Shown: positions 5,725 through 59,652, counted from the stretch's first letter. The stretch is 64,000 nucleotides of DNA from an uncultured bacterium (GCA_964387845.1 CAYLXA010000007.1:1-64000); one strand, 5' to 3'. Notes: a model not told the origin generated them from the sequence alone. A program made the numbers and translations.

Positions 5725-5856
5725 TTCTTTTTTATCTGCGATTTGAACCAGGTTCTCCGCCAAAAATCGCGGCGGATCCGCCAAGCAGTGTGGCGGAAAA
5801 TCCCGCCACCCCGATACTCGGGTATATTGTGTAAACCATGTGCCAGTAAGTTCACC

Positions 5857-7554: not shown

Positions 7555-7573
7555 AATTTAAATACCTTACCTG

Positions 7574-11352: not shown

Positions 11353-11743
11353 CTTGAAAACTCACTTTGTAAAACTCGACGGTTTTCTTAACCGGGTTCC
11401 TGGGTGGCTGAGGATTTTCCTGCCGCTCTTTTTCATCTTCTTCCTCAGGCGCCAACGGCGTTAGCTTTTCAGCTGAGATACGCGCGGCCAAATTACTTTT
11501 CTCTCCCTCGGCGGAAAATAATTGCAACATTGATGGATCAAACGAAACAGGATCCAAATACCAGCCGAGAAGTTTCTGATCCAGAATTTTATGAACTTCA
11601 TTTGCTTTAATCGACCGGTTCGATACCGAAAGAGATCCGGAAAATACACGAAGCGCTGATACGACGCCGATGGCCAAAATCGTAGTGGCAATCAGCGCTT
11701 CGATCAGAAGCGCGCCTTTAGTGAATCGGGGCCGGTTAAGCAC
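11276..11743 (-). CDS. minor pseudopilin, GspI-like
   Basis: The N-terminus is KGALLIEALIATTILAIGVV, a degenerate prepilin motif with Glu at +5. The size is small. It sits at the gspI position. Confidence 0.5.
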   Translation of the reverse strand: MLNRPRFTKGALLIEALIATTILAIGVVSALRVFSGSLSVSNRSIKANEVHKILDQKLLGWYLDPVSFDPSMLQLFSAEGEKSNLAARISAEKLTPLAPEEEDEKERQENPQPPRNPVKKTVEFYKVSFQVVDARQRSFFQDVFYMAQYGNQKKS

Positions 11744-14300: not shown

Positions 14301-16478
14301 TTAGCTGACTTCAAACTTGAGATCAAGCAGCTCTTGATCCGAATCCATGTCCTTTGAAAATGGCGGAAAAGGTGAAAGCGATTTGACTGCTTCCGTAATA
14401 ATGCGCACCTCATGCTCGGATAAGCCGGTATCGCTGGCTACATAACTCAATTCAACAGCACCGCTTTTATCCACAATCAAAAAGAGTTCAAACTTTGCGG
14501 TCAATTTCTGAAACTCAGGCCTTTGGTTCAATACTTCGGCGATTGCCGCGTGTATCATCCCCCGATAGTATTCTCTTGCACGATGAGACGCCGGCAAAAT
14601 CTCGCCTCCTTGGGGCGTTAATTCCATGTAATCATTGACGCTACCCCGGTTCGGCAAAGACGCTATCGAAGAGTTTCGTGGGGCAATCATAAGCGGCTTT
14701 TCTTTGACGGGAGATTCCCAATAGGGTTCATCATTTAGGCGAAACGGCCCATGAGAAGTAGTGGATTGTGCCTTCAGAAAATCATAGCCGCCGACCTTGT
14801 CAAAATCGACCCATTCGCCCTGCTTATCTAAATATCGCTGCCGCTCCATGGAATCCGACTTCCCGTCGACGATGCGCGGCGTCAGAAACACCACAAGCTC
14901 CGTCTTATTAAAATCATTCGATTCTGTCCGGAATGCAGCGCCCACCCATGGAATATCACCCAAAAACGGAATCTTCTTCCTGGTTTTTCCGTGGCGGTCT
15001 TGCATTAGCCCGCCGATCACAACCGTGGCTCCATCCCGCGCAACCACAGTCGTTTCAAGTGTTTGGGTCGTCACAACCGGAACAACCGTACGGACAAAAG
15101 TCGCATCACTGCCTGATGCTGCGCCCTGCAATTGGAGCGGGTCGCCTGCCGTACTGACTTCGGGTTTCACTTTTAATACAACCGAGCGGTCTTCTGAGAT
15201 CGTGGGAACAACTGAAAGTGTGACGCCAACGTCGATAAACTGAACCTGGTCAGCAGTGGTCGACGTCGATTGGCTCTGGGAAACCGTTTGCGAAACAAAC
15301 GGCTGCCGGGTTGCAACTGCGAGCTTGGCTTCCTCATTATTCAAAACCAATAAACGCGGGCTCGATAAAATATTCGTCTTTCCGATATTTTGCAAAATAC
15401 TGATGACACTCTGAAAACTTGTCGGGTCGTTTTCACCGCCTTCTTCGCCGATGGTGAATGTACTTAAACTGCCGCCGCCAAGCGTCGATGACGGAGCTGA
15501 TACGGAAAAATTCGGCGCCGCATTAAACATTTTGGCATCGCCGAGCCTGCTTGCAACATAATTCCAATTCACACCGAACCTGTAAGCATCGAAAAGCTGG
15601 ACTTCAACCACCTTTGCATCAATCAAGACTTGAAGGGGCCGCACATCAAAAGCTTTTATGATTTTTGCAACCTGATCAACGTTTTCCTTGCGGTCGGTGA
15701 TAGAAACCTGATTAGTTCGTTTATCGATTTTAAGAAGCCCAGTGGTTGCAGTCAAAAAATCCTTTAATTGAGTTTCCAGATCGGCAACTTTAGCAAACTG
15801 AAGCGTAAAAACTTTGGTGACGAGCGGCTCATCAAAAGAGTTCACGGCCTCTTCAATTTCATCCAGAACTTCGGGCATATCCGTCACGATCACCGTGCTG
15901 GTTCGCTCATCCAGCGCGATCCGGCCGGATGTGCTTTTCATGGTTTGCAGCACGGTATTCATGGCTTGAGGATTGGCATATTTGAACTTAAAAGTCCGCG
16001 TTTCCCTTTCATCGCGAAATGGTTTTCCGAATTTTGATTCGTATTCCTTGTTACCCATCACGGTAATAATGCCGTCCTTTTCTTCATAAGCAAGCCCGAG
16101 CGTTTGAACCACAGTATCCAATGCCTTTCGGACTTCAACATCTTGAAGATACAGCGTGACGTCGCCCTTTACATCGCGCCCGGCAACAATATTAAGCCCG
16201 CTCCGCTTTGACAAAATTTTCAAAACATCTAAGACATTCACGCCTTTAAGTTCCAGCGTGATGGTTGAGGAGGTTATTCCGCGCGAAGTTGCACCAGAAG
16301 CTGTATAGTCAACCGGCGGCTGTGAGAAATTAGAAAAGGTTTCTTCCGAATCTGAATAAGAAGGAGGGCTGTTGGGATCTTGGGCAATCGCGAACGGAAT
16401 CGCCGGTAAACCGCTTAACATAAGACCAACGCTTAAGAAAAAAGCGAGCATGCGTGATTTCATTTTAGGTCTCCTCAA
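14301..16478 (-). CDS. gspD: T2SS secretin GspD with C-terminal extension (TonB_C-like?)
   Basis: Signal peptide, N0/N1/N2 domains (LKGVNVLDVLKILSKRSGLNIVAG) and a secretin core (VVIGGLMQDR...IPFLGDIPWVGAAFR...ELVVFLTPRIV) are present. A roughly 190-aa extra C-terminal tail follows. Confidence 0.9.
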   Translation of the reverse strand: MRRPKMKSRMLAFFLSVGLMLSGLPAIPFAIAQDPNSPPSYSDSEETFSNFSQPPVDYTASGATSRGITSSTITLELKGVNVLDVLKILSKRSGLNIVAGRDVKGDVTLYLQDVEVRKALDTVVQTLGLAYEEKDGIITVMGNKEYESKFGKPFRDERETRTFKFKYANPQAMNTVLQTMKSTSGRIALDERTSTVIVTDMPEVLDEIEEAVNSFDEPLVTKVFTLQFAKVADLETQLKDFLTATTGLLKIDKRTNQVSITDRKENVDQVAKIIKAFDVRPLQVLIDAKVVEVQLFDAYRFGVNWNYVASRLGDAKMFNAAPNFSVSAPSSTLGGGSLSTFTIGEEGGENDPTSFQSVISILQNIGKTNILSSPRLLVLNNEEAKLAVATRQPFVSQTVSQSQSTSTTADQVQFIDVGVTLSVVPTISEDRSVVLKVKPEVSTAGDPLQLQGAASGSDATFVRTVVPVVTTQTLETTVVARDGATVVIGGLMQDRHGKTRKKIPFLGDIPWVGAAFRTESNDFNKTELVVFLTPRIVDGKSDSMERQRYLDKQGEWVDFDKVGGYDFLKAQSTTSHGPFRLNDEPYWESPVKEKPLMIAPRNSSIASLPNRGSVNDYMELTPQGGEILPASHRAREYYRGMIHAAIAEVLNQRPEFQKLTAKFELFLIVDKSGAVELSYVASDTGLSEHEVRIITEAVKSLSPFPPFSKDMDSDQELLDLKFEVS

Positions 16479-45993: not shown

Positions 45994-48057
45994 TTACTTG
46001 GGCTTTTGAGGCTTTAATTCGCGTGGCGGAGCTTGCAAGGAAGCTTCCTCGCGGTCAAGGATGCGTTTGCACAAAAATTCCTGGGCGCGGAATTTTTTTC
46101 TTGAATCCGTTTCGACTTTCTGATAATTCCCGTCCGGCAAAAGCTTCCAAGATTTCACGTTGTCCTTAAAATAAATATCCAAAAGCTGAGTTAGTTCTTT
46201 TTTAATTTCCTTGCTTTCGATCGGAAACATGATTTCGACCCGGCGGTCCAGGTTGCGCGGCATCCAATCGGCGCTCGCCAAATAAACCTCATCCTCGCCG
46301 CCATTCTGAAAGTAGAAAATTCTCGCATGCTCGAGAAACATATCTACCAAACTAGTAACTTCAATGTTGTCGCTCAATCCCTGAACGCCCGGTTTTAAGC
46401 AGCAAATGCCGCGCACATTCAACTTGATTTTAACGCCGGCTTTAGACGCGCGGTACAAAGCTTCGATCACTATCGGATCCACAAGCGAGTTCATTTTGGC
46501 CATAATCAGGCCCGGTTTTTCGGTGCTTGAGCGCATGGATTCACGCGTAATCAGCCGGAGAAGTTTGCGCTTGAGCGTAAACGGCGCGACATCGATTTTG
46601 TTCCAACTGGCCGGCTCCGAAAATCCCGTGATCATATTGAAAAACGCAGACAAGTCACCTGCGATACCCTCGTCACATGTAAAGAGACCGACGTCGGAAT
46701 AAAGCCGTGCGGTTTTCTCATTGTAATTACCGGTTGATAAATGCGCGTAGCGCTTAATTCCTTCCGGCTCACGCCTGATGACAAGACATGCTTTGGCGTG
46801 CGTCTTGAGGCCGCGAACACCGTACAACACGTTGGCGCCTGCGATTTCAAGGCGTTTTGCCCATTCAATATTCCTCTCTTCATCAAAGCGGGCTTTGAGC
46901 TCAACGAGTGCTGTCACCTGCTTGCCGTTTTCCGCTGCGCGCTCCAGCGCACGCATGACGGCCGAATCTTTACCTGCTCGATAAAGTGTTTGCTTAATCG
47001 CAAGCACATCCGGATCGGCAGAAGCCGCATTGATAAATTGCAGAAACGCATCAAAAGATTCATAAGGATGCTGAACACAAACATCCTTTTGTTTGATCAA
47101 TTCCCAGATATCGTCGACGTTCGCAAATTCAACTGATGCGCGAGGCCCCCATTCCGGCTGTTTAAACTCATCAAATCCGGGCCGAAAAGCAATTTGTGAA
47201 ATGGTTTTCAAATCAAACCAGCTTTCGACCGGGCAAATCACCTCATCCGAAAATTCAAGCCGGGTCTTCAAAAATTGCGTGAGTACGGCCGAAGCCGCAA
47301 GCTCGGCGCGGACAATATCGCCGTGACGGCGCGCCCGCAATGCCTCACTCATCACCTGCGCAAAGTCATCATCTCTGTCTTCGTCAATATTAAATTCAGC
47401 GCCGCGCGTCAGACGCATCAAACCCTGATCGATGATTTCGTAGCCGGTAAAAAGTTCGCTCGCAAAAAGCGAAACCACATCTTCCAGCAATACAAATGAG
47501 AACCCCGCGCTCTGCGGTAGCGAAATCATGCGCGGAAGATTGCGCGGAATTTCAATGGCGGCAAACTCTTGCTTAACAGCTCCCGGTTTTAAGAGTGAAA
47601 CCACCATATAAAGCGCCAGATTTCCAAGCGTCGGTGTTCTTTCATTTTCGGAAATAGCGATCGGCGTCAGAACCGGAAACAATTCCTTCTCGAAAAAGTG
47701 GCGGATGTAACTTAGTTGAAACTCATTCAGTGCCTGCTTTTTAATGCGGGAAATCCCTGCTTTTTCAAGTTCCGGGATCAATGTCTTAAGAAAATAATCG
47801 TTCTGAACCTGAATCAGCTGATGCGCTTTAGCGCGAACCTGGCGGGCTTCTTCAGACCCGCTTTTGAGGCCCGCAACCCGTACCATGAAAAATTCGTCGA
47901 AATTTGAACTCACAATTCCGATAAATTTTAACCGCTCCAAAAGCGGATTGGCGGCGTCCATTGCTTCCGCTAAAACCCGTTCATTAAACTGAAGCCACGA
48001 AATTTCGCGGTTAAGCAGGCGATCCTGAATATCTTTGTTGATTTCTGAAGTCGGCAT
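45994..48057 (-). CDS. ppk: polyphosphate kinase 1
   Basis: The PPK1 N-terminus is ISWLQFNERVLAEA. PLD-like C-terminal domains are present. The listed start at 48078 is TTG, and I prefer the ATG at 48057 (MPTSEINKD). Confidence 0.9.
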   Translation of the reverse strand: MPTSEINKDIQDRLLNREISWLQFNERVLAEAMDAANPLLERLKFIGIVSSNFDEFFMVRVAGLKSGSEEARQVRAKAHQLIQVQNDYFLKTLIPELEKAGISRIKKQALNEFQLSYIRHFFEKELFPVLTPIAISENERTPTLGNLALYMVVSLLKPGAVKQEFAAIEIPRNLPRMISLPQSAGFSFVLLEDVVSLFASELFTGYEIIDQGLMRLTRGAEFNIDEDRDDDFAQVMSEALRARRHGDIVRAELAASAVLTQFLKTRLEFSDEVICPVESWFDLKTISQIAFRPGFDEFKQPEWGPRASVEFANVDDIWELIKQKDVCVQHPYESFDAFLQFINAASADPDVLAIKQTLYRAGKDSAVMRALERAAENGKQVTALVELKARFDEERNIEWAKRLEIAGANVLYGVRGLKTHAKACLVIRREPEGIKRYAHLSTGNYNEKTARLYSDVGLFTCDEGIAGDLSAFFNMITGFSEPASWNKIDVAPFTLKRKLLRLITRESMRSSTEKPGLIMAKMNSLVDPIVIEALYRASKAGVKIKLNVRGICCLKPGVQGLSDNIEVTSLVDMFLEHARIFYFQNGGEDEVYLASADWMPRNLDRRVEIMFPIESKEIKKELTQLLDIYFKDNVKSWKLLPDGNYQKVETDSRKKFRAQEFLCKRILDREEASLQAPPRELKPQKPK

Positions 48058-48068
48058 CTTGATAATCT

Positions 48069-48135
48069 CAAATTTCAAAATTCAAATATCAAAATCAGAC
48101 TTTTTAAATTTTGATATTTGAAATTTGAATTTTAT
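48069..48135. repeat. AT-rich palindromic intergenic repeat, copy A
   Basis: The stem arms are TTCAAATATCAAAAT and ATTTTGATATTTGAA (15 bp, perfect) around the loop CAGACTTTTTAA, with imperfect outer arms. It fills the ppx-ppk1 intergenic space. Confidence 0.6.
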
Positions 48136-49694
48136 GTTTTTGGCGGTTGACCTTGTTTCAATAAAATCGGCCGGCCGAAAATGTCGGAAAACATGCTGCC
48201 TTTTTTGGATAATCCGTCACGCTCGAGCGTCACATCGCCGATTTCTTCAGGAACCCATAAAACAAACGAATCTTTCTTGGACTCAAGTTCAAACGTACGG
48301 ATTTTTTGCTGATGACTCCGGTCTAATGAATCGGCCACCCGTAAAATAGCCGCAAGTTTTGAAACGGTGGCCCGGTCTTGCTTGGTCAGTGACATGTAGG
48401 CCACATGATCCGGCTGAGGAGACGCGCGGCGGTGATAACGCACAATATTTGAGACAAGATCTTTATCGCTTTTTCGAAGCCCGAAAATTTCGGCGGCATC
48501 GACTAAGTAACTGGAATGTTTATGGTGGCTTGTGGCCGCAATAAACATGCCGATATCGTGCAAAATAGCGGAGACCTCAAGTATCAGCCGGTCACGCGTT
48601 CCGAGCCCGTGCTCCTCTTTCAGCAAATCAAATAATTTAACCGACAAACTGGCGACATGCAGCGAATGGGATTCGTCATATTGATATTTTTTTGCCAAAT
48701 GCTTTGCCGAGTTAATGACCTGCTTTGACAAATCAGTTCTTTTATAGCCCGAAAGCAACTGGGAAAGTTCGATCAAAAGGCCGTCCCGGATACTGACCGC
48801 AGGCACCACAATCTTCTCCGCTTTCGTTTCATTCGCAAAATTAGCATAAATCAAGAGAGACGGATAAAGCGTTTCTGCTTCTACATAAGGAATGCCGTAT
48901 TTATCCACAATTTCTTCGGGGGTTAATTTTGAAAGGCTTGTTACAAATTTCTGGAAATCCTTGTTATCAATAATTGAAAAATCTTCCGCAGGTTTTTCAA
49001 TCAGCTGTTTGGCGGCAAAACGAATGTCGCCGCCTAAAGCAATAAACGTATCAATTTCACCCAGATTATATTCACGGCCCGCATAAACCGCGATTCCGTG
49101 AATGCTGCGCTTTAAAACGCGCTGCATCACTTCCGGTTCGGTCTTGCCTGCAATCGCCTGCTCGGGAAGCCGCACGGACCCGATCGAAAGCATCCGGGTC
49201 AATTCGACAACGCCTTTATTTAAAATAATCATTTCCGTACTTCCGGATCCTACTTCAATCACCAGACAATTCTTTTTACCAAAATCAAATTTATCCTGGA
49301 AGACACGCTCAATCGCAATCAGCACAAGCCGGTTTTCCTCCGCGCCTTCCACGACTTCCACATCAATTCCGGTTTGGACAAACACGCGGTCGACGAAATT
49401 ATCGCGGTTAGAAGCTTCTCGGACAGCGCTCGTCGCAATGGCATGAATATTTTTAATGTTGTAGCCGTCAATAACGGTCTTAAAATTCTTGAGAATTTCG
49501 ATACCGTCACGCATCACGCTGTTGCTGATTCTTCCGGAGGTAAACACATCTTTGCCGAAGGCGACGGGTTTTTGAAGATTCTCAAGATAATGAATTTCAG
49601 ACTTTCCTCCCACTTCGGCAACCGCCATGCGGATTCCGCTCGTTCCGATATCAATCACCGCAACCGGTTGTTTGACCGCTGTCTCCGCAGACAT
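48132..49694 (-). CDS. ppx: exopolyphosphatase/guanosine pentaphosphate phosphohydrolase (Ppx/GppA) with C-terminal HD domain
   Basis: The N-terminal actin-like VAVIDIGTSGIRMAV and a C-terminal HD motif (ILHDIG) are present. The start is taken at ATG 49694 (MSAETAV), 1 nt after the upstream stop. Confidence 0.85.
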   Translation of the reverse strand: MSAETAVKQPVAVIDIGTSGIRMAVAEVGGKSEIHYLENLQKPVAFGKDVFTSGRISNSVMRDGIEILKNFKTVIDGYNIKNIHAIATSAVREASNRDNFVDRVFVQTGIDVEVVEGAEENRLVLIAIERVFQDKFDFGKKNCLVIEVGSGSTEMIILNKGVVELTRMLSIGSVRLPEQAIAGKTEPEVMQRVLKRSIHGIAVYAGREYNLGEIDTFIALGGDIRFAAKQLIEKPAEDFSIIDNKDFQKFVTSLSKLTPEEIVDKYGIPYVEAETLYPSLLIYANFANETKAEKIVVPAVSIRDGLLIELSQLLSGYKRTDLSKQVINSAKHLAKKYQYDESHSLHVASLSVKLFDLLKEEHGLGTRDRLILEVSAILHDIGMFIAATSHHKHSSYLVDAAEIFGLRKSDKDLVSNIVRYHRRASPQPDHVAYMSLTKQDRATVSKLAAILRVADSLDRSHQQKIRTFELESKKDSFVLWVPEEIGDVTLERDGLSKKGSMFSDIFGRPILLKQGQPPKT

Positions 49695-49695
49695 T

Positions 49696-50703
49696 TTAAT
49701 CCCTCTTCTTTTCCTGGTAGTGATCCCACGCCAGTTTGGCAGCGCCCAAAATAATCGCGTCATCTTTGAGCTGTGCCGGCACAACCGCAACGTATTTGGC
49801 GATCGACTGCATGGCATGCTGCCGCATTGATTCGCGCGCTTCGTTCACTACAATACGTGACATCGCTTCTACCAACCCTCCGCCCAAGACAATCATCTCG
49901 GGATTGAGGATATTGACCACATTCGCCATCGCAATACCGAGGATGCGCGACTTTCGGATCATCAGGTCTTTGATTTTTTGATCCCCGGCATCAATCGCAC
50001 GTTTCAATGCGCCGCTTTTAATGTCTTTGATGTCCGTCCCGGACATTTTGTATAGTTTCGGAGCCTGTTGCTTCGCTGCCAAGAGCGCTGCTTCTGAAGC
50101 AATCGCCAAGCGGCCCGCCAATGCCTCCAGACAACCGCGCTTGCCGCATCCGCACATCGGGCCCAGTGGATCCACCAAAATATGCCCGATTTCGCCTGCA
50201 GCGCCAGTAAATCCGCGATACAACGCGCCATTTAATATGAGAGCGCCGCCGATGCCGGTTCCCGGAAAAATACCGACCACATGCTTATGGCCTTTGGCGG
50301 CGCCGAAAACAAGTTCTCCATAGAGGCCTGCATTGACGTCATTTTCGAGGACAACCGGTACTTTAAAGATTTTGGATATTTTTTTTGCAAGCGGATATTG
50401 CTTCAGAAAACGAACATTTGGCGATTCAATCACAACACCGCGATCATCAATAATGCCCGGGCAGCCGATGCCGATGGCTTTCAGATTCTTAAGATCGACG
50501 TCCGATTCATCGGTAACTTGATAAATACTTTCTGCGATATCATCAATAAAATTTTTCCCGCCTTTAGACACTTCGGTTTTCATTTTTGTGGAAGCCAAAA
50601 CGCGGAAATGATCATTCATTAAAGCGGTCAGCATCTTGGTGCCGCCCAAATCAATGCCGACAATATATTTTTTCTTTTTCTTATTTTTTTTCTTTTTTGC
50701 CAT
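49696..50703 (-). CDS. ROK-family glucokinase (candidate polyphosphate glucokinase)
   Basis: The ROK motifs are IVGIDLGGTKM and the zinc site CGCGKRGCLEA. A Lys-rich N-terminus is present. It sits directly upstream of ppx/ppk1. Confidence 0.7.
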   Translation of the reverse strand: MAKKKKNKKKKKYIVGIDLGGTKMLTALMNDHFRVLASTKMKTEVSKGGKNFIDDIAESIYQVTDESDVDLKNLKAIGIGCPGIIDDRGVVIESPNVRFLKQYPLAKKISKIFKVPVVLENDVNAGLYGELVFGAAKGHKHVVGIFPGTGIGGALILNGALYRGFTGAAGEIGHILVDPLGPMCGCGKRGCLEALAGRLAIASEAALLAAKQQAPKLYKMSGTDIKDIKSGALKRAIDAGDQKIKDLMIRKSRILGIAMANVVNILNPEMIVLGGGLVEAMSRIVVNEARESMRQHAMQSIAKYVAVVPAQLKDDAIILGAAKLAWDHYQEKKRD

Positions 50704-50705
50704 CG

Positions 50706-51650
50706 CTAATTCCTTGACACTGCAAGCTCGGGAAAGTTAAGTTTTTGCCAGCCGGTCCCCTGATGACCAAAGCTGAAAAGCTCCGGGTGAAAAATCTCTG
50801 CCAAAATTTCAAATGATTCCAAAAGCCTCGGGCCGGGCCGGTTAAAATATTGATTACCGTCCGCCAAAAACACCTTTCTTTCGCGCACCGCTTTTAACTG
50901 GTTCCAACCGGGCTGCGCAAAAAGCGGTTCTAATTCGGTTTTGGTCCGGGCCATATCAAATCCGCACGGCACAATCATGATCACATCCGGATCTGCTTCT
51001 TTTAACTTTTCCCACTCAAGCCAGGGAGAATGTTTTCCGGCTTCGCCAAATAAATTATCAGCACCGGCTGCTTCCACGAGTTCCGGAACCCAATTACCGG
51101 ACGTCATTAAAGGATCGATCCATTCCAAAAGCACGGTACGCGGACGGTTATTTGCTTGGTGCGCTTTTTTGGCAATGGCTGCCATTTGATTTTCCATATC
51201 CCGGACAAGTTTTTCGCCATTTTGTTTCACACCAAGCTCGCCGGCAATTTTCAAAATATCCGAGAAAACATCTGAAAGTGAATTGGGTTTGAACGAAATG
51301 ATTCTTGCCTTAGATCCCATCATTTCACAAACTGCTTGTTCTACATCCTTCAAACTTACCGCACAAACCTCGCACTGATCCTGAGTCAGGATAAAATCGG
51401 GCGCCAGAGATTTAAGTTTTGCAGAATCGATCTCATAGATAGAGATCGCATTGTGCGCGAGCGATTTGACCGCCCGGTCGATCTCGGAGCTTTTGGCATA
51501 AATATCAATCTTGGGCTTGCTGAGCTGCGGAAGTTCTTTAACGGATCCGGGGAAATCACACTCATGCGAGCGGCCGATTAATTGATCTCGGAGCCCAAGT
51601 GCGCAAATAATTTCTGTTGCGCTCGACAGCAGAGATACAATTTTCGGCAT
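50706..51650 (-). CDS. cobalamin-binding protein, BtuF/TroA-like periplasmic-binding fold
   Basis: The N-terminus is PKIVSLLSSATEIICALGL, the class III SBP family. No obvious signal peptide is present. Confidence 0.55.
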   Translation of the reverse strand: MPKIVSLLSSATEIICALGLRDQLIGRSHECDFPGSVKELPQLSKPKIDIYAKSSEIDRAVKSLAHNAISIYEIDSAKLKSLAPDFILTQDQCEVCAVSLKDVEQAVCEMMGSKARIISFKPNSLSDVFSDILKIAGELGVKQNGEKLVRDMENQMAAIAKKAHQANNRPRTVLLEWIDPLMTSGNWVPELVEAAGADNLFGEAGKHSPWLEWEKLKEADPDVIMIVPCGFDMARTKTELEPLFAQPGWNQLKAVRERKVFLADGNQYFNRPGPRLLESFEILAEIFHPELFSFGHQGTGWQKLNFPELAVSRN

Positions 51651-51679
51651 AAAACACCTTCTGTCGCATTGAACACCCT

Positions 51680-52210
51680 TTAATTGATCGCGACAATGCG
51701 AGAATCGCGCAACGCAGGATTGATACGCTCAAACGACCAACTCAACCCAAAAAGAACAACGGTAAACAGCATATCGCCGGCTAAAGTATTTCTGAAAAAC
51801 GGGAGCGCCATGGCGAAACATTCCACAAGCCCAGCCATAGTCTTAGGATACAACGTGTCAATGAGCCATACGCCGAAATTAGTAATCATAAAAAACATGA
51901 CGGAACTTGCAAGCGCCGCAATCAAAATATTGCCGGCGCTTTTCTTTTGCCGAAGCCAAAACCCGATGCCAATCACCAAAGCCAGGCAGCCATAAGTCGC
52001 GATTACTTGACTATGAAAACCAATTACCAGATCGCTTAACAAGAGCGCGCCGAAAGTGACCAGAAAAGCAGCACGTTTATCGGAAAACTGTGCACCGCCA
52101 AAAAGCGCCATCGCCACAACGGGCGTTAAGTTCGGTGGATGAGGAATCAGCCGTGAAGCAGCTGCGGATAAGGTTAACGCAAGCAGCATCCAAAATCTGG
52201 GTTTTAACAT
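51680..52210 (-). CDS. polytopic membrane protein (putative ECF-type S-component-like)
   Basis: It has five to six TM helices. LIPHPPNLTPVVAMALFGG is conserved. Confidence 0.3.
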   Translation of the reverse strand: MLKPRFWMLLALTLSAAASRLIPHPPNLTPVVAMALFGGAQFSDKRAAFLVTFGALLLSDLVIGFHSQVIATYGCLALVIGIGFWLRQKKSAGNILIAALASSVMFFMITNFGVWLIDTLYPKTMAGLVECFAMALPFFRNTLAGDMLFTVVLFGLSWSFERINPALRDSRIVAIN

Positions 52211-52293
52211 TCAGTGTCTCCTTTTCGTCAATGACGAGTTATACAATAAACTTAATTATCGTTCTGATATGTAAAATCTTGGTAAGAAAAAAC

Positions 52294-54069
52294 TTAACCA
52301 AAACGCTTTTGCGTTGAGGTAAGTTCGTCGCGAATTTTTTTCGGTAAACGGCTGCCAATCCTATCAAAATGTTCGAGCTGGCTCTTAAGCTCTTCGGCCC
52401 ATTCTGCTTTATCGACCTTGAGAAGCGCTTCCATCGTTTCCTTAGAAAGATTCAAGCCTTCCAAATTAAGCGCGTCCGGAGTCGGCACATTTCCGATCGG
52501 CGTTTCCACTGCCTTTCCTTTTCCTTGGCAACGCTCTAAAATCCAGTTAATGACGCGCAAGTTTTCGCCGAATCCCGGCCACATAAATTTGCCATTTTGA
52601 TCAACCCGGAACCAGTTTACGTGGAAAATTTTGGGCGCATTCTTGATTTTCTTGCCCATATTGACCCAATGCTGAATGTAATCTCCAACGTGATAACCCA
52701 TAAATGGAAGCATTGCCATCGGATCACGGCGGACAACACCGACTGCCGATGTTGCAGCAGCAGTTGTTTCAGAGGCCATGGTGGCACCGATGTAAGTTCC
52801 GTGATTCCAGTTTTTGGATTCATATACAAGCGGCGCTACTTTCGCGCGGCGGCCGCCGAAAATAATCGCGCTCAGAGGAACGCCCTTCGGATTTTGCCAC
52901 TCGGGCGAAATGCACGGACATTGCGCGGCAGGCGCTGCAAAACGGCTGTTCGGATGCGCAGCTTTGTCTTTTGAAGCCGGCGTCCAGTGCTCGCCTTTCC
53001 AATTAATACCTTCTGCGGGAGCGGGCTCGTCGCTTCCTTCCCACCAAAGTGTTTTATCTTTTTTCACAAGCACGTTGGTGTAAACCGTGTTTTTCTGAAT
53101 GGTCGCAAGCGCGTTCGGATTGGATTTGGAATTGGTTCCCGGCACAACACCAAAAAATCCGGCTTCCGGATTAATCGCCCAGAGGCGTCCGTCTTCGCCG
53201 ATGCTGAGCCATGCGATATCGTCACCGACCGTCCAAACTTTGTAGCCTTGTTTACGCAACGCTTCAGGCGCGATCATCATCGCGAGGTTTGTCTTGCCGC
53301 ATTGACTTGGGAAAGCCGCCGCGATGTAATGAATTTCACCTTTTGGATTTTGAATGCCGGTAATCAGCATATGTTCCGCCATCCAACCCTGGGTTTTACC
53401 CAAATAGCTGCCAATCCTGAGTGCCAAACACTTTTTGCCGAGAAGCGCGTTTCCGCCGTATGCGGAACCGACGGACCAAATCGTGTTGTCTTCCGGAAAA
53501 TGCGCAATGAAGCGGCGATTGATGTTGAGGTCAGCCTTACTGTGCAAACAGCGCGTAAATTCCGGAGAATTGCCGAGATGTTTCCAAGCGGCCTCGCCCA
53601 TACGGGTCATGATGCCCATACTGAGCGTGACATACAAACTATCAGTTAATTGAATGCCGACTTTACTGAATTTGGAACCGGCAGGACCCATAATGAAAGG
53701 CACTACGTACATCGTACGGCCCTTCATGGAACCTTTGAAAATACCGGATAATTTTTCGTAAGCTTCTTTGGGTGCCATCCAATTATTCGTCGGGCCTGCG
53801 TCTTCTTTATTTTGTGTACAGATGAAAGTGAGATGTTCGGTGCGGGCAACATCATTGACGTCGGAGCGATGATGATAGCAACCGGGGAGTTTTTTCTGAT
53901 CCAGCTCTTCTAATTCACCTGTTTTGAGGCATTGGCCAATCAGTTCCTTTTTTTCCTGTTCGGAACCATCGCAAAAGTGAATATGATCCGGTTGACAGAG
54001 CTTAGTCATCTCGTCAATCCATTGAAGCGCCGCTTTATTAGAGGTAAGGGTCGTTTCCAGTGTCATCAT
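52294..54069 (-). CDS. pckG: phosphoenolpyruvate carboxykinase (GTP)
   Basis: It matches the GTP-PEPCK family over its full 591 aa. Confidence 0.95.
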   Translation of the reverse strand: MMTLETTLTSNKAALQWIDEMTKLCQPDHIHFCDGSEQEKKELIGQCLKTGELEELDQKKLPGCYHHRSDVNDVARTEHLTFICTQNKEDAGPTNNWMAPKEAYEKLSGIFKGSMKGRTMYVVPFIMGPAGSKFSKVGIQLTDSLYVTLSMGIMTRMGEAAWKHLGNSPEFTRCLHSKADLNINRRFIAHFPEDNTIWSVGSAYGGNALLGKKCLALRIGSYLGKTQGWMAEHMLITGIQNPKGEIHYIAAAFPSQCGKTNLAMMIAPEALRKQGYKVWTVGDDIAWLSIGEDGRLWAINPEAGFFGVVPGTNSKSNPNALATIQKNTVYTNVLVKKDKTLWWEGSDEPAPAEGINWKGEHWTPASKDKAAHPNSRFAAPAAQCPCISPEWQNPKGVPLSAIIFGGRRAKVAPLVYESKNWNHGTYIGATMASETTAAATSAVGVVRRDPMAMLPFMGYHVGDYIQHWVNMGKKIKNAPKIFHVNWFRVDQNGKFMWPGFGENLRVINWILERCQGKGKAVETPIGNVPTPDALNLEGLNLSKETMEALLKVDKAEWAEELKSQLEHFDRIGSRLPKKIRDELTSTQKRFG

Positions 54070-54167
54070 GGCTATTCTTAAAAATCAGATAATATAGATT
54101 ACTTTTTTCGTCAACTTGCAGGCTTTTAGTCTATAAAACTGCGTGAATTTTGTCAAACTGAGAATGG

Positions 54168-54716
54168 CTATCGCCACTTAATGGAGCAACCCATGGAGGG
54201 GACTTGATTTGCAGGAATTGGCTTACCATCAACGAGGCAGTCTATGGCCTCTTTCAACTCCTGTTTCTTCACCTTGGATTCTTCTTTCCAATTGTCATCC
54301 AAGCGGCCGTGATAGACGAGTTCGTGATTAACGTCAAACAGATAAAGGTCGGGGGTGCACTGTGCCTGGAATTTCTTGGCAATTCCCTGCGTTTCATCAA
54401 CCAAATACGGAAATTGCAAATCCCATGCCTCGATATTGTCCCTCATTTTCTCAGGCGCATCTTCCGGATAACCCGGATGAATATTGGGATTAATCGCAAC
54501 CGTGTTCACATCCATTTCTTTGGCGTATTTCGCAAGCTTGATCAAGCGCGGCCAGATTGCCTGTGCGTAAGGACAATGGTTGCACGTAAAAACCACAAGC
54601 AACCCTTTCCTGCCCATGAGCTGCCGGCCCGAAAAATGTTCACCGTATGGATCCGGCAGGTCAAATGCCGGCATTTTGTTTCCGAGCGGAAGTTTTAAAG
54701 ATTCGACGAGTGCCAT
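54168..54716 (-). CDS. thioredoxin-fold protein
   Basis: A CNHCPYAQA (CxxC) motif lies in a redoxin-like fold. Confidence 0.55.
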   Translation of the reverse strand: MALVESLKLPLGNKMPAFDLPDPYGEHFSGRQLMGRKGLLVVFTCNHCPYAQAIWPRLIKLAKYAKEMDVNTVAINPNIHPGYPEDAPEKMRDNIEAWDLQFPYLVDETQGIAKKFQAQCTPDLYLFDVNHELVYHGRLDDNWKEESKVKKQELKEAIDCLVDGKPIPANQVPSMGCSIKWR

Positions 54717-54720
54717 AATT

Positions 54721-54792
54721 TTAATATCAAAATCTAAATTTCAAATATCAAAACATCTTTTGAATTTTGATATTTGATATTTGAATTTATGT
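54721..54792. repeat. AT-rich palindromic intergenic repeat, copy B
   Basis: It contains AAATTTCAAATATCAAAA ... TTTTGATATTTGATATTTGAATTTATG. It occupies the entire 82-bp intergenic gap. Confidence 0.6.
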
Positions 54793-54798
54793 TGCTGG

Positions 54799-56679
54799 TT
54801 ATTGAGGTTTGTCGGTGAAACTTTCTTTCAAGTTATTATAAATTTGCCTGGCTTTTTGATTGTTCGGATCCAAGCTCATCACAGTTTCGAGCGATTTTCT
54901 GGCATCCACATAAAGCCCCTGCGCCAAATATGCGACCGCTAAATTTAAATGTGCTTCCGGGTCATTCCAGTTTTGATTAAGTGCAAACTGAAGCTCCATC
55001 TGAGCCGCATCAAAACGCCGGGCCCGATTATAAAGCATTCCCAGATTCTTGTGAAGCTGCGCTTCCTGCTTAGGCGTCTTTGCGTACTGTAATCCTTCAC
55101 GAAATACGCCGTCCGCCATCGGATACCTTTCCAACTGCGTTAAGCAAACACCGAGAATTCCGTAAATGTCCGGATCATCTTTCTTGCTCCTCAATAGACC
55201 GGCATACTCTTGAGCGCATTGCTCCCAAAGTCCCAATTGATAATAAGATTCGCCGAGCCGCTTGTGGCATTCAATGGTCGGATTGATCTTGCAGGCATTT
55301 TCAAATCCGTCAATCGCGTCTTTTTGCCGCCCGGTTTTTAAATAAAGATTTCCAAGCCGTATGAAAATTTCTGACGGCTGATCAGCATTCATTTCATTGA
55401 TCTCGCCGCGTACGGTTTGACTGGGAGCTGCTTGAAGCGCAAGCGATAGAAAATCGTAGGCTTTCTGATAATTGCCGAGATGAAAGTAAGACCATCCTAA
55501 ATTGCTTAATACTTTCGGATTCCTGTTTTGGATGCGCAGAGCTTCCGTCAATAATTTTGCGGCTTCGTCGTATTTTGCGCGCCTCATCTGAACAGCCGCC
55601 ATATTGATTTTCGCATCGTAATTTTTCGGATCCAAGACAAGCGCACGATTCCATGCGTAAAATGCCGGTTCATAATTTTCCTTGTTAAAATGAGAGATGC
55701 CAAGCCAGTTTAAGGCGTCGGCTTTCATCGGATTTTGGCTGGCGACGGTAAAAAGATCCACGGCGGTACCGAGCTCCTGAATAGCTTCCTCATATTTGCC
55801 CAATTTTGCATATAAAATTCCCAAATCAAGCCGCGCTTGGGGATTTTGAGGATTTAATTTAATCGCCGCCTGCCAGGCCTTGACGGCTTCGTCGGTTTTG
55901 CCGAGTTTGATTTCGAAAACACCAAGCCAATAATAAAAATCGAACGATTGTTCGGTTTGGACTAACTTTTTATAAGCCGACAGCAACTGCCCTGCATATC
56001 CTTGTTCGATAAATTCCGTTCCCTTTTTAAAATCAACTTCCCGGACAAGCCGTATAATTTCGCGGTTCACCGGGTCAAACGCCGTCGGCGTCTGCCGATC
56101 CGCGACAGGATACATCATCGAGCGAGAATCTTTGGTGTGGATGGCACCGAAAAGATGGCCGAGTTCGTGCGCGAGCACAGTTTCCTCCTGGACTTTAAGC
56201 AAAGGCTGCGCCGGATAGCGCATGATGAGGTAGCCGGAAAAGGGCCTCGCGCGCCCAATCACATCGAGGTCGCGAAGGCTCGTTAAATTCTGATAGGACC
56301 GGAGCCGCGTGAGGCCGATGACAATATCAACCTGCGCTTTCTCAAGCGGAAAGCTATTTCTCAAATCTTCGATCAAGTAGCCGGAATCATCGATGTCGCC
56401 TCCGAGCTTCCATTCCCAAACCACCACCGGCACAAAGCGAATTTGAAATTCACGTTCAAAAATTTGGGATGCATAGGCAAGCCGCTCTTTGAATTTTTCT
56501 TTCCAGGCAGTATCCGCGCGGATATCCTGTGTTGCGGCAATGCCGACTCTGAGCTCACGCAAAGTATCCGCATTCGCCGGATAACTCGCTAATAAAATCA
56601 AAAAGAGAAAAGACGGGAAAAATTTTCTAAGAAATGAGACGTGGTTTTGGGTTTGAGGGATAATTGGACATTCCGGCAT
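54799..56679 (-). CDS. secreted metzincin-type zinc metalloprotease domain fused to C-terminal TPR repeats
   Basis: The zinc-binding motif HELGHLFGAIH (HExxHxxGxxH) is followed by a Met-turn (SMMYP). At least eight TPR-like repeats are present. Confidence 0.6.
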   Translation of the reverse strand: MPECPIIPQTQNHVSFLRKFFPSFLFLILLASYPANADTLRELRVGIAATQDIRADTAWKEKFKERLAYASQIFEREFQIRFVPVVVWEWKLGGDIDDSGYLIEDLRNSFPLEKAQVDIVIGLTRLRSYQNLTSLRDLDVIGRARPFSGYLIMRYPAQPLLKVQEETVLAHELGHLFGAIHTKDSRSMMYPVADRQTPTAFDPVNREIIRLVREVDFKKGTEFIEQGYAGQLLSAYKKLVQTEQSFDFYYWLGVFEIKLGKTDEAVKAWQAAIKLNPQNPQARLDLGILYAKLGKYEEAIQELGTAVDLFTVASQNPMKADALNWLGISHFNKENYEPAFYAWNRALVLDPKNYDAKINMAAVQMRRAKYDEAAKLLTEALRIQNRNPKVLSNLGWSYFHLGNYQKAYDFLSLALQAAPSQTVRGEINEMNADQPSEIFIRLGNLYLKTGRQKDAIDGFENACKINPTIECHKRLGESYYQLGLWEQCAQEYAGLLRSKKDDPDIYGILGVCLTQLERYPMADGVFREGLQYAKTPKQEAQLHKNLGMLYNRARRFDAAQMELQFALNQNWNDPEAHLNLAVAYLAQGLYVDARKSLETVMSLDPNNQKARQIYNNLKESFTDKPQ

Positions 56680-58562
56680 TAGCTTGACTTGATGATTCCG
56701 TCTTCCAGCCAGCTGTAGTGGCCATCCAACACATTCATCGCGACTTTGTAGCCCATTTTATCGTCACTTTTAATCAAACCGTGGAACTGACGCTTGATGC
56801 GGCGTTCGGCTTCCCGTGAGAGCATGTTCGCCAGGTCGAGCGGGCTGCGGTCTGTCGGGTTTTTGGCGTAAAGCGCCGCCGCACGTGAGCAGCTGGTTGC
56901 AATTCCAAAGAGATCGCAGCCGATGTTGACAATCCGGAATAAAATCCGCTGTTTTTTCTCGAGTCCCGCTTGATGCTTGACCATCACATGAAAAAGCGAG
57001 CGGGCCAGTTTTCGTGAAGTCCGGTCAACAAAATCAAAATGTTTCCTGAGTTCGCCGGGCACAGGCCCCTTCAGTGACGCACGCTTCCAAAAAAACCACA
57101 GCTGCGGATACCAAACTACGTAAAAAAGTCCGGCTTTAATCGTAATCAGAATTTTATCTTTCAAACTGGTCTTTGGGTTCATGAGCGGCAGGATAAATTT
57201 TAAATGCTGGTCCATCGCTTCGCGCGCGATAAAAAGGCGCATGATTTCGCTTGTGCCTTCAATAATCAAATTAATGCGCACATCGCGCATCGCACGTTCG
57301 ACGGGAATTCCGGCTTCACCGCGTTTGCGGAGCGACTCGGCCGTTTCGTAGCCGCGGCCGCCGCGGATTTGGACCGTATCATCCACCACCCGCCAGCCAC
57401 CTTCCGTACAGAACAGTTTCGCCATCGCCGCTTCCAGCCGGATGTCGCTCTTTTTCTGATCCGCCATGTGCGAACTGAGCAGCATCACACTTTCAATCGC
57501 AAACGTGGTGGCCGCCATGGACGCCAATTTATAAGCAATGGCGTCGTGCTTTCCGATGACAGATCCCCACTGCTCGCGCTCATTGGCCCAATGCCGCGAA
57601 ACGTTCAAACACCATTTCGAAACACCGCTCATGGCAGCCGGTAAAGTCAGGCGGCCGGTATTAAGCGTCATCAAAGCAAGCTTTAATCCTTGCCCAATCC
57701 CCCACAAAATATTTTCCTTCGGGACTTTAACATTATTGAATCTCAACAAGCCGTTTTGAATCCCGTGAAGGCCCATGAAACTGCACCGGTGGATCACTTC
57801 AAAGCCAGGCATACTGGTTTCAACGATAAATGCAGTTATCTTCTTCTTTTCTTTTCCGTTAACCATCACCGGCGTCTGCGCCATCACAATCAAAATATCG
57901 GCTGCCGTGCCGTTCGTGCACCAAAGTTTTTCGCCGTTCAGCACATAATATTCACCGCCTTCAACAGGCGTCGCGGTTGTTTTCATTTTGGCCGGATCAG
58001 ATCCGACATCGGGTTCCGTGAGTGCAAACGCAGAAACAGCGCCCTGGGCAAATCGCGGTAAATATTTTTTCTTCTGCTCTTCCGTTCCGAATAGCATGAG
58101 CGGCTGCGGAACGCCGATTGATTGATGAGCGGAAAGCCACACGGTCGTGGATCCGCAATAACTGGAGATGAGCTGCATTGCGCGGTTGTAATTGAGCTGT
58201 GAAAGCCCGAGGCCGCCGTATTCCTTTGGAACTTTCATCGCAAAACAGCCCAACTTGGCAAGGCCTTCCAAAACTTTCTTCGGAATTTCGCCGGTTTTAT
58301 CGACGGCGTCAGGATCTAAATTTTCACGCAGGAATACTTCAAGCTCTTGGCAAAACCGGTCGCCTACTTTGCGGTCTTCCGGGCTTTGCTCGGGAAACGG
58401 GAAAATCATGTCCCAACAGCATTTGCCCGCAAAAAGCTGCGCCAGGAAACTGGGCTGTTTCCACTCTTTTTCGCGGGATTCTTCCGCAACTTCAAGCGCC
58501 TGTTTCTTGCTTTCGTCGATCCCTTTAACATATTCCATGTTGGTTCCCCGGAATTGATGCAA
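56679..58562 (-). CDS. acyl-CoA dehydrogenase, FadE-like, with C-terminal extension domain
   Basis: The ACAD N, middle and C domains are present. A roughly 180-aa C-terminal extension follows. Confidence 0.8.
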   Translation of the reverse strand: MHQFRGTNMEYVKGIDESKKQALEVAEESREKEWKQPSFLAQLFAGKCCWDMIFPFPEQSPEDRKVGDRFCQELEVFLRENLDPDAVDKTGEIPKKVLEGLAKLGCFAMKVPKEYGGLGLSQLNYNRAMQLISSYCGSTTVWLSAHQSIGVPQPLMLFGTEEQKKKYLPRFAQGAVSAFALTEPDVGSDPAKMKTTATPVEGGEYYVLNGEKLWCTNGTAADILIVMAQTPVMVNGKEKKKITAFIVETSMPGFEVIHRCSFMGLHGIQNGLLRFNNVKVPKENILWGIGQGLKLALMTLNTGRLTLPAAMSGVSKWCLNVSRHWANEREQWGSVIGKHDAIAYKLASMAATTFAIESVMLLSSHMADQKKSDIRLEAAMAKLFCTEGGWRVVDDTVQIRGGRGYETAESLRKRGEAGIPVERAMRDVRINLIIEGTSEIMRLFIAREAMDQHLKFILPLMNPKTSLKDKILITIKAGLFYVVWYPQLWFFWKRASLKGPVPGELRKHFDFVDRTSRKLARSLFHVMVKHQAGLEKKQRILFRIVNIGCDLFGIATSCSRAAALYAKNPTDRSPLDLANMLSREAERRIKRQFHGLIKSDDKMGYKVAMNVLDGHYSWLEDGIIKSS

Positions 58563-58641
58563 AAGTTAGATTTAACGAGCCATTAAAAGTCTAGATGATA
58601 TATCGACAGAATGGAAGAGTTGAGTGAGCTATTTTTAGGGG

Positions 58642-59148
58642 TCAAAACGGCGATGCGGCGACCAGGGCCGCCTGAATATAAACCAGCTGAATCCACACCG
58701 GAACCGCGCTTGGATCCGATACGCTCCGCTCGCCAGTGACTTTGGTCACGCCGATGGCAATCCAGACAAAACCCGTTAAACGCTTAAAGAAATTTTGAAA
58801 AACCGGTTCCGCGACTGCATCATTCGGAATTTGGAGCAATACCCCAACCAGCACAAGCCCGAGCCAAACCGCGCCGCTCGGCCATCTGGAAAGTTTGCGG
58901 ATATTGACGAAAAAAGCCTGGGCAGCGCAAATCATAAGGACGATACCCATCGCCAAAAAAGAAACGTGGCCGCGCCTTAAAAATGGTTCCAGACAAAACA
59001 AGCCGAATAAAAATGCAAACAAAGGCCATAAGAAAAGGGATTTCGGAATCAAAGAAGACGATTTTGCTTCAAGCAATGCAAAAGTAGCCATCGCGATGAG
59101 AAGCCCTGCCGCAACCCAGTGACTGATGATCGGAATATAGGGATTCAT
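58642..59148 (-). CDS. polytopic membrane protein, unknown function
   Basis: It has four to five hydrophobic helices. Confidence 0.3.
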   Translation of the reverse strand: MNPYIPIISHWVAAGLLIAMATFALLEAKSSSLIPKSLFLWPLFAFLFGLFCLEPFLRRGHVSFLAMGIVLMICAAQAFFVNIRKLSRWPSGAVWLGLVLVGVLLQIPNDAVAEPVFQNFFKRLTGFVWIAIGVTKVTGERSVSDPSAVPVWIQLVYIQAALVAASPF

Positions 59149-59210
59149 TCTGGTTTAAATGACGGCTCAAATTTGGCGATTCTTTAACTCAATAGAGTAT
59201 AATAAAACCC

Positions 59211-59335
59211 AATTTCAAATATCAAAATCTAAAACAAATTCTAAATTTAAATGTTTCAATAGCCGTTTTGAAATTCAATATTTAGTAATTTGAAATTGTT
59301 TGGATATTTGAAATTTGACATTTGAATTTAAATAT
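59211..59335. repeat. AT-rich palindromic intergenic repeat, copy C (extended)
   Basis: The left end AATTTCAAATATCAAAATCTAAA and the right end GATATTTGAAATTTGACATTTGAATTTAAATATG match copies A and B. It lies in the divergent promoter region upstream of the Rieske gene. Confidence 0.55.
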
Positions 59336-59341
59336 GAGGAG
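59336..59341 (+). promoter_or_regulatory. Shine-Dalgarno AGGAGG for Rieske gene
   Basis: AGGAGG sits 5 nt upstream of the ATG at 59347. Confidence 0.6.
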
Positions 59342-59346
59342 GACTC

Positions 59347-59652
59347 ATGGGAAATTTCACAAAAGCAGCATCGGCAAAAGATATTCAAGACGGTGCTGGA
59401 GTCGCTGTAGAAGTCGGCGGAAAATCAATTGCTGTTTTTAATTGCGGCGGACAATTCTACGCCATCGATAATACTTGCAAACATCGCGGCGGCCCGCTTG
59501 GGGAAGGCAGTTTGGACGGCAATGTGGTCACCTGCCCCTGGCACGGCTGGCAATTTGATATTACAAACGGAAATTGTGTCACCAACCCTGCCGGTAAAGT
59601 GGAGTCTTATCCTGTCAAAGTCGAAGGCAGCGATATTTTAGTTGAGATTTAG
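59347..59652 (+). CDS. Rieske [2Fe-2S] domain protein (NirD-like small subunit / Rieske ferredoxin)
   Basis: The cluster ligands are CKHRGGPL ... CPWHGWQF (CxH...CxxH). Confidence 0.8.
   Translation: MGNFTKAASAKDIQDGAGVAVEVGGKSIAVFNCGGQFYAIDNTCKHRGGPLGEGSLDGNVVTCPWHGWQFDITNGNCVTNPAGKVESYPVKVEGSDILVEI

Follow-up and report, generated by a model that had tools for sequence, protein, structure and literature searches.

Three AT-rich palindromes, labelled c1, c2 and c3 below, occupy intergenic spacers in a 64,000-nucleotide (nt) stretch of DNA from an uncultured bacterium (GCA_964387845.1, CAYLXA010000007.1:1-64000; the whole stretch is referred to as the window, and all positions are counted within it), and the question raised by this locus is what kind of element they represent. 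An earlier note on this DNA had offered three options: an element resembling the repetitive extragenic palindromes (REP) or the miniature inverted-repeat transposable elements (MITE), a family of terminators or insulators, or operator sites for a regulator binding AT-rich palindromes. With moderate confidence, the results described below are read here in favour of the first option in a broad form, namely that c1-c3 are a lineage-specific family of small, non-coding palindromic repeats of the REP/MITE/ERIC/Correia class. Each copy is built as an inverted pair of short tandem arrays of an AT-rich heptad, TCAAAWW.

Location and composition of the three copies

All three copies were recovered in the sequence where the earlier note had located them, and the gene context given there agreed with Pfam: ppx and ppk1 around c1, a TPR-metzincin gene and a thioredoxin-like gene around c2, and genes for a membrane protein and a Rieske protein around c3. 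Copy c1 (70 nt, 48064-48133) was delimited by motif matches, inverted-repeat search, folding and Tandem Repeats Finder (TRF). Its left arm (48068-48095) consists of the four heptads TCAAATT TCAAAAT TCAAATA TCAAAAT and is joined through a loop (48096-48107) to the right arm (48108-48133). Copy c2 (72 nt, 54720-54791), which was delimited by inverted-repeat search, folding, alignment with c1 and TRF, has its left arm at 54723-54754, a loop at about 54755-54762 and its right arm at 54763-54789. Copy c3 is a long form (132 nt, 59204-59335; inverted-repeat search, folding and TRF), in which an outer left arm (59211-59228) and an outer right arm (59298-59337) enclose an interior (59229-59297) of more self-complementary heptads. 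The statement that each copy fills its spacer almost exactly fits c1, which lies in a spacer of 74 nt, but not c3, which takes up 132 of 198 nt. The G+C content (GC) of the palindromes was 0.18-0.25, against 0.47 for the window and 0.30-0.53 for the other window spacers; the composition of the elements is far from that of the genome and is foreign to it.

Copies were counted in 68.5 kb of the source genome, which comprised the window and 4.5 kb beyond it (from contig L134). When up to two mismatches were allowed, the 15-mer core named in the earlier note matched ten times, each time within one of the three elements (0.86 matches expected in the window). This core had been described as perfect in all three copies, which holds for c1 and c3 but not for c2, where each arm carries one mismatch; the perfect common core is the 14-mer TTCAAATATCAAAA. 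The 14-mer was found exactly four times (in both arms of c1, in c2 and in c3; 0.01 expected) and nowhere else in the window. Matches to the di-heptad pattern TCAAAWWTCAAAWW with at most one mismatch numbered 14 (2.9 expected in the window), 13 of which fell in the elements. A profile of the six arms matched only its own six arms, with no further arm in the window or in the 4.5 kb beyond.

Heptad structure and kinship of the copies

A feature absent from the earlier note is the seven-base period of the arms, which are tandem heptads (TCAAAWW in the left arm, WWTTTGA in the right arm) numbering 3-7 per arm. Period 7 was detected by TRF in four arms, with 4.0-4.9 copies (c1, 4.0; c2, 4.3 and 4.4; c3, 4.9), and the left arm of c1 was also reported as 2.0 copies of period 14. 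The autocorrelation at lag 7 was 0.49-0.62, compared with about 0.35 in shuffled sequences. As inverted repeats, the arms measure 26 nt in c1 and 24 nt in c2, with a complementarity of 92% and 88%, respectively, while c3 combines outer arms like those of the other copies with nested self-complementary arms. Terminal inverted repeats, which are one hallmark of MITEs, were thus found in c1, in c2 and, as outer and nested arms, in c3. A second hallmark, small non-coding elements present at several sites, was found as well, in the form of three counted copies of 70, 72 and 132 nt at three unrelated spacers.

The six arms could all be aligned without gaps. The heptads at the loop-side end were ...TCAAATA-TCAAAAT in five arms, with the variant TCCAAAC in the sixth (the right arm of c3), and in four of the six they were preceded by a heptad ending in AATT (TCAAATT, CTAAATT or CCCAATT). 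The non-palindromic loops of c1 and c2 could also be aligned with each other. Because the arms align gaplessly, end in the same ordered heptads and, in c1 and c2, enclose alignable loops, the three copies are related by descent or copying and are not independent motif runs. General AT-richness had been named in the earlier note as the explanation that might undo the family; it is insufficient in view of the gapless arms, the ordered heptads and the exact 14-mer, seen four times against 0.01 expected. Compared with c1 and c2, c3 has constant ends and a variable centre, a relation paralleled by two copies in the metagenome contig L023. The steps in arm length are whole heptads, 3-4 in c1 and c2 and about 7 in c3, which, together with heptad-like mini-spacers in relatives, suggests that slippage took part in arm growth.

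Two further observations concern c2. The 12 nt between the TPR-metzincin stop codon and c2 (54790-54801; minus strand CCAGCAACATAA) are similar to the ppx 3' end next to c1 (48132-48146; CCGCCAAAAACATAA), which is the ancestral sequence in relatives. The likeness may reflect a piece of flank carried along in copying from c1 to c2, or may be due to chance. In addition, the Logan contigs L001 and L134 (run SRR15237813) both end within c2, and the stretch common to them is exactly 28 nt of the right arm (54760-54787). This overlap points to a branching of the assembly graph, for which either a further copy elsewhere or polymorphism of heptad number in the population would be responsible.

Orthologous sites in related genomes

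The syntenic DNA of relatives with 78-89% protein identity was found through protein look-ups; about 99 kb was fetched, of which about 85 kb was non-redundant. At the c1 site, the ppx-ppk1 spacer measures 74 nt in the source genome, 57 nt in the 88% relative (L131) and 8 nt in the 84% relative (L129), and the ppx stop codon lies at the identical position in all three. The 57-nt spacer of L131 is AT-rich and non-palindromic, with a folding energy of -6 kcal/mol. The c2 spacer, which is 82 nt here, measures 19 nt (L135), 8 nt (L138) and 5 nt (L140) in relatives. At the c3 site, where the flanks are conserved, a spacer of 198 nt corresponds to 86 nt (L142) and 82 nt (L140), and in the alignment the homology with relatives picks up exactly where the element ends. 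The element was therefore missing from all three sites in relatives, which is the presence/absence pattern between related genomes expected of a MITE, and the six-arm profile found no copy in the fetched relative DNA. Since the same sites exist in relatives without the element, this comparison of sequences shows that the elements were gained in this lineage, after its split from relatives of 84-89% protein identity.

Hairpins and predicted transcription

The proposal that the arms can form a long AT-rich hairpin was borne out by folding of each copy as RNA: -22.4 kcal/mol (z -5.8) for c1 on the minus strand, -17.2 kcal/mol (z -3.0) for c2 and -31.4 kcal/mol (z -3.5) for c3 on the plus strand. 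The sense fold was better than the antisense fold by 3-4 kcal/mol in c1 and c3, whereas in c2 the antisense fold was slightly better. Values close to those for RNA were obtained when the elements were folded as DNA. No Rfam covariance model matched at the elements, either at the gathering score or at E up to 5. A terminator scan left c1, c2 and c3 unflagged, and the G+C-rich stem followed by a U-run at a transcript 3' end that marks an intrinsic terminator was not found in them.

A TATAAT motif on the plus strand (59198-59203) was identified from a four-genome alignment as the probable -10 element of the Rieske promoter. Toward the Rieske gene, three of the four genomes read GTATAAT and one reads GTATACT, and the four-genome homology starts at this motif. 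Toward the membrane-protein gene, the final base differs among the genomes (T, G, A, G), so the motif is best read as the Rieske -10 element. Copy c3 starts 7 nt downstream of TATAAT and would thus make up the initial 130 nt of the Rieske mRNA, whose 5' end would carry the hairpin. From the gene layout, c1 and c2 are expected to be transcribed as intercistronic parts of mRNAs.

Two other promoter candidates were rejected. One was TTGATA-18-TATACT, suggested by the promoter scan for the membrane-protein gene: the conserved motif fits GTATAAT toward the Rieske gene better, and its position 6 varies. The other was a leaderless promoter, TTGATA-17-GA(G/T)ATT-6-ATG, at c1 and c2; its -10 element is weak, it is not general in the look-alike elements described below, and no promoter lies there in relatives. 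Separately, the start region of the Rieske gene (59334-59349) is a small palindrome, ATGAG-GAGGA-CTCAT(G). In the predicted fold, the upstream AUGAG pairs with the AU of the start codon and the three preceding bases, and most of the GGAGG lies in the loop.

Gene neighbourhood

At c1, the minus-strand ppk1 gene (45994-48057; PP_kinase N, middle, C1 and C2 domains in Pfam) lies immediately downstream and the minus-strand ppx gene (48132-49694; Ppx/GppA and HD domains in Pfam; a call of 520 amino acids in L001) immediately upstream, so that the 74-nt spacer runs from the ppx stop codon (48132-48134) to the ppk1 ATG at 48057. At c2, an AhpC/TSA-Redoxin-like gene (54168-54716, minus strand; Pfam) follows downstream and the TPR-metzincin gene (54799-56679, minus strand; Pfam) precedes it, with a spacer of 82 nt between the TPR-metzincin stop codon (54799-54801) and the AhpC/TSA-like ATG (54716). 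The 198-nt c3 spacer is divergent. It reaches from the ATG at 59148 of a gene for a 168-amino-acid membrane protein (58642-59148, minus strand; no Pfam match) to the ATG at 59347 of the gene for the Rieske [2Fe-2S] protein (59347-59652, plus strand; Pfam), and a GGAGG Shine-Dalgarno sequence lies between c3 and the latter. The remainder of the window is chromosomal core and contains type II secretion/pilus genes, mreBCD-pbp2-rodA, a pur operon, nrdR and ligA. No gene for a ribbon-helix-helix, helix-turn-helix or other small DNA-binding protein flanks any copy.

A block of about 40 nt, TTAAAGAATCRCYAARTTTGAGCCGTCATTTA, lies directly upstream of the membrane-protein gene (59149-59190, minus strand) and was also found in relatives (L142, 5482-5519; L140, 2485-2521; L138, 9961-10000). 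It is near-invariant across the four genomes, while the remainder of the spacer is variable, and it could be a leader, a small open reading frame or a regulatory site.

The source is a metagenome-assembled genome from Omnitrophota, because homologues of its acyl-CoA dehydrogenase and membrane protein, at 54-74% identity, carry the label Candidatus Omnitrophica. Of 56 called genes in the window, 54 are on the minus strand, and the cumulative GC skew falls steadily. A replication origin, a parS site and a DnaA-box cluster were considered and dismissed: the skew is monotonic, the candidate sites are scattered, and par and dnaA genes are absent. A loose Shine-Dalgarno sequence was found at 19 of the 56 gene starts, and the reliance of this organism on Shine-Dalgarno pairing seems low. 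A missing Shine-Dalgarno sequence was for this reason discarded as the sign of a special feature, given that so few window genes have even a loose one.

Other palindromes in the clade

Palindromes of other sequence were found in the relatives. At the c3 position of the 84% relative (L138, 9851-9933) lies an unrelated, GC-richer, nested palindrome, which begins 9 nt after the same -10 motif and folds at -38.9 kcal/mol (z -4.1). In L129, also from this relative, an AT-rich palindrome of different heptads, AAAGTTA/TAACTTT, was found at 16249-16324, with 34-nt arms that are 79% complementary; it sits in the 5' leader of a histidine-phosphatase gene, between a TTGCCA-18-TGTATAAT promoter and the ATG. 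The L129 palindrome is of the same type as c1-c3 but differs from them in sequence, and the c3 site is a recurrent home for palindromes. Because the L138 and L129 palindromes differ from the heptad elements of the window, the clade has several unrelated families of small palindromes, gained and lost at spacers and 5' leaders.

Within the L138 palindrome, the inner part (9880-9903) reads GAAGCAATC-N6-GATTGCTTC and is enclosed by GTCATTGCGA...TCGCAATGAC within the 5' leader of the Rieske gene. The inner repeat also occurs at L135 2-25 and L142 6115-6138, and in the 89% relative it lies between the membrane-protein gene and the acyl-CoA dehydrogenase gene; there is none in the window. Logan contigs were seen to break within this repeat.

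Look-alikes in other lineages

Scans for look-alike elements were seeded with the motif of c1-c3. A two-arm pattern had 16 scattered matches in 185,579 reference genomes, 111 matches in JGI metagenomes and none in viral contigs; the source genome is in neither of the first two collections, and no match came from it. The look-alikes are AT-rich heptad palindromes in GC-richer contigs, some of which carry several copies: L023 has four in 6.6 kb (139-283, 2735-2822, 4173-4299 and 5768-5897), two of which are alike except for a self-complementary insert in the loop, and L028 has three in 11.5 kb (3891-4031, 10195-10381 and 11293-11495). Others were found in L105, Candidatus Jorgensenbacteria (1687-1825 and 3263-3422), in L011, a metagenome-assembled genome (MAG) of Deltaproteobacteria UBA6106 (4134-4267), and in L017, a Phycisphaerales MAG (7486-7580). 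They lie mostly between co-directional genes and abut start codons (a crude count gave 16 tandem, 8 divergent and 3 doubtful convergent arrangements), and in many of them a heptad of the CCTAAAC/GTTTAGG type stands beside the TCAAATATCAAAA core.

A test for ungapped outward extension of the palindrome supported 14 of 100 pattern matches. In view of this minority, and of a scan seeded with the motif of c1-c3 itself, a rigorous definition of a cross-phylum class was given up, and the class stays anecdotal and is kept as a lead. A bolder idea would be that heptad-arm AT palindromes, seen in the source genome and a relative and, as look-alikes, in these other lineages, are a widespread intergenic punctuation of uncultivated, Shine-Dalgarno-poor bacteria, put in place at the 5' ends of mRNAs and between cistrons by an unknown enzyme that reads heptads, or as a new MITE superfamily, and setting the fate of the mRNA. 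This idea is given a small chance.

Comparison with known systems

Correia elements (CREE/NEMIS) of Neisseria and the ERIC/IRU elements of enterobacteria are likewise intergenic palindromes of about 70-150 bp that are optional between related genomes. They are also co-transcribed with their neighbours as long mRNA hairpins near gene starts and ends, a property that is inferred for the elements described here. CREE end in defined inverted repeats of 26 bp, duplicate a TA target and contain an IHF site; no such defined ends, duplication or IHF site could be shown for c1-c3. In contrast, the arms of c1-c3 are tandem heptads, far more AT-rich than the genome, without sequence similarity to CREE. 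As described in one account, CREE can create promoters and bind RNase III (PMC2649163). The Correia elements are the nearest functional parallel.

The REP/BIME elements, mobilised by RAYT (TnpA-REP), resemble c1-c3 as dispersed extragenic palindromes between co-directional genes for which similar roles in mRNA stabilisation have been proposed. REPs occur in hundreds of copies together with a RAYT gene. They are described as being 20-40 nt in length, with a G+C-rich stem and a GTAG or CGTC tag (PMC3733652), whereas the elements here are 70-132 nt, A+T-rich (GC 0.18-0.25) and untagged, with no GTAG or CGTC in or beside the arms and no RAYT gene in the window.

Repeats of seven bases are known from other systems. 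The cyanobacterial STRR sequences have a 7-nt repeat unit and are intergenic, as the arms here are, but they form long direct tandem arrays of identical heptamers without inverted pairs, and both taxon and sequences are different. The heptad recognised by omega of plasmid pSM19035 is WATCACW. In that system, the parS/operator sites are 7-bp repeats in mixed orientation that are bound by omega (ParB), and several contiguous units, direct and inverted, stand at gene starts (PMC9499535). It differs from c1-c3 in being a plasmid system with another heptad and an adjacently encoded binding protein; here the genes are chromosomal core genes, no such protein is encoded nearby and the sites are unconserved. 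The "palindromic microsatellite repeats" of Fusarium, the repeats of Volvox and the double-hairpin elements of Allomyces are also palindromes made of short repeats and found only in intergenic DNA, and such organelle repeats differ between sister species, which was taken as evidence of mobility (PMC7218506). They belong to eukaryotic organelles and are unrelated in sequence to c1-c3. The optional palindromic repeats of fungal and algal organelles are the nearest structural parallel.

Small palindromic intergenic repeats are known, and the heptad-array arms are a new variant of them. No description of such elements in Omnitrophota was found in the literature.

Interpretation

Of the three options in the earlier note, the REP/MITE one is best supported, by the absence of the elements at relatives' sites, by the in-register homology of the copies and by their foreign GC; REP in the proper sense does not fit in size, GC or tag. 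In the mechanism that we propose, copying between intergenic sites would have generated the copies and the arms would lengthen through added heptads, with elements persisting where they are tolerated, namely at a stop-to-start junction in the case of c1 and c2 and in a 5' leader in that of c3. All three would be transcribed within mRNAs, judging by gene layout for c1 and c2 and by the conserved TATAAT for c3, and would as RNA adopt a long A/U-rich stem-loop of 13-22 or more bp beside a start codon. The most likely consequence would be a side effect, that is, a changed stability, processing or translation of the adjacent cistrons, and a dedicated regulatory role is less likely. The family was recently gained and is probably neutral or mildly modulatory.

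Several points weigh against this reading. Just three copies could be counted in the 68.5 kb, all of them inside 11.3 kb, and no transposase, RAYT or integrase was found in the window by Pfam and related gene annotation, nor any Y1-transposase in the 68.5 kb. The empty sites of relatives are too diverged for a clean insertion scar, and neither a target-site duplication nor a sharp end could be defined when the flanks were compared by eye with them; the TA and TAA seen at element ends in this comparison are as expected in AT-rich DNA. A register shift of 7 nt retains 65-76% identity, so that the copies resemble one another partly through periodicity. In relatives, heptad-like units and a mini-palindrome of 7 bp are already seen in short AT-rich spacers, which makes growth in place possible. 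Finally, the presence of two unrelated palindromes at one position in a 5' untranslated region could mean selection for a stem-loop there and not selfish spread.

This last point leads to the possibility, unlikely in our judgement, that the elements are selected cis-acting RNA stem-loops, acting as stabilisers at 5' ends or between cistrons, or as processing sites for RNase III/E, that tune ppk1, the redoxin gene and the Rieske gene, with spread being secondary. It would agree with a c3 hairpin that opens the Rieske mRNA at its 5' terminus, with the unrelated palindrome placed almost alike after the same motif in the 84% relative, with the L129 palindrome between promoter and ATG, with the better sense folds of c1 and c3, and with the Correia precedent, for which RNase III binding with cleavage or protection has been described (PMC2649163). 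However, an empty site suffices in two of the three closest relatives, the fold of c2 points the other way, and the start site is inferred; three copies are too few for compensatory changes to be counted. Less likely again are operator arrays for a cooperative reader of 7-bp repeats like omega/ParB of pSM19035, with a regulon of the ppk1, redoxin, Rieske and membrane-protein genes. The contiguous heptads, 3-4 or more per arm (4.0-4.9 by TRF) in inverted arrays, recall the at least four contiguous heptads that pSM19035 needs for full activity (PMC9499535), and every copy lies directly upstream of a start codon, with c3 overlapping the promoter region. Against such a role, the element is missing at all three sites in relatives, where conservation would be expected of an operator, and two of the sites are operon spacers of 5-19 nt that leave no room for a promoter. 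The downstream genes are functionally unrelated, and the window annotation has no DNA-binding protein gene near the elements. Moreover, the order of degenerate positions and the c1/c2 loops are conserved, neither of which a heptad reader would need, and the heptad here is WWTCAAA and not that of omega. The operator option of the earlier note therefore finds little support, but it keeps a small probability, as the omega/ParB system of pSM19035 shows that a protein can recognise adjoining 7-bp repeats of mixed orientation (PMC9499535).

It is still more doubtful that the elements grew in place, through heptad slippage in AT-rich spacers and hairpin-templated symmetrisation followed by convergence or occasional gene conversion, instead of transposition. 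This would account for the period-7 arrays seen by TRF, for arm lengths that vary by whole heptads, and for the spacers of relatives with AAAACTT twice (the 7-bp mini-palindrome, L135) and TTTAAAT three times (L131). Yet the three loci have the same ordered heptads, the exact 14-mer and alignable c1/c2 loops, the heptads of relatives differ at the same sites, and independent growth would not repeat one sequence three times. The least likely of the four rivals is that the elements are insulators, or intrinsic terminators working in both directions, the 5' arm of each being A-rich and the 3' arm U-rich. A strong hairpin with a U-rich 3' arm is present on both strands, and the genes flanking c2 are functionally unrelated. 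Nevertheless, c3 lies between two gene starts, where there is nothing to terminate, c1 lies within a gene pair whose spacer in a relative is 8 nt, the A/T-rich stems carry loops of 8-12 nt and passed unflagged in the scan, and no hairpin exists at the c1 and c2 sites of relatives. This option of the earlier note likewise finds little support. The reading as a lineage-specific family of palindromic repeats is thus retained.

Implications

For annotation, the elements should not be entered as regulatory sites or terminators, and for assembly it is relevant that short-read assemblies of this lineage are broken by them. Sister genomes have these operon junctions and this 5' leader both with and without a long hairpin, which amounts to a natural experiment: because these genomes differ in the presence of the hairpin, its effect on operon expression is testable. 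If the reading as a repeat family holds, c1-c3 would be a fresh example of palindromic repeats colonising the scarce non-coding bases of a compact genome, in a phylum without a cultured model.

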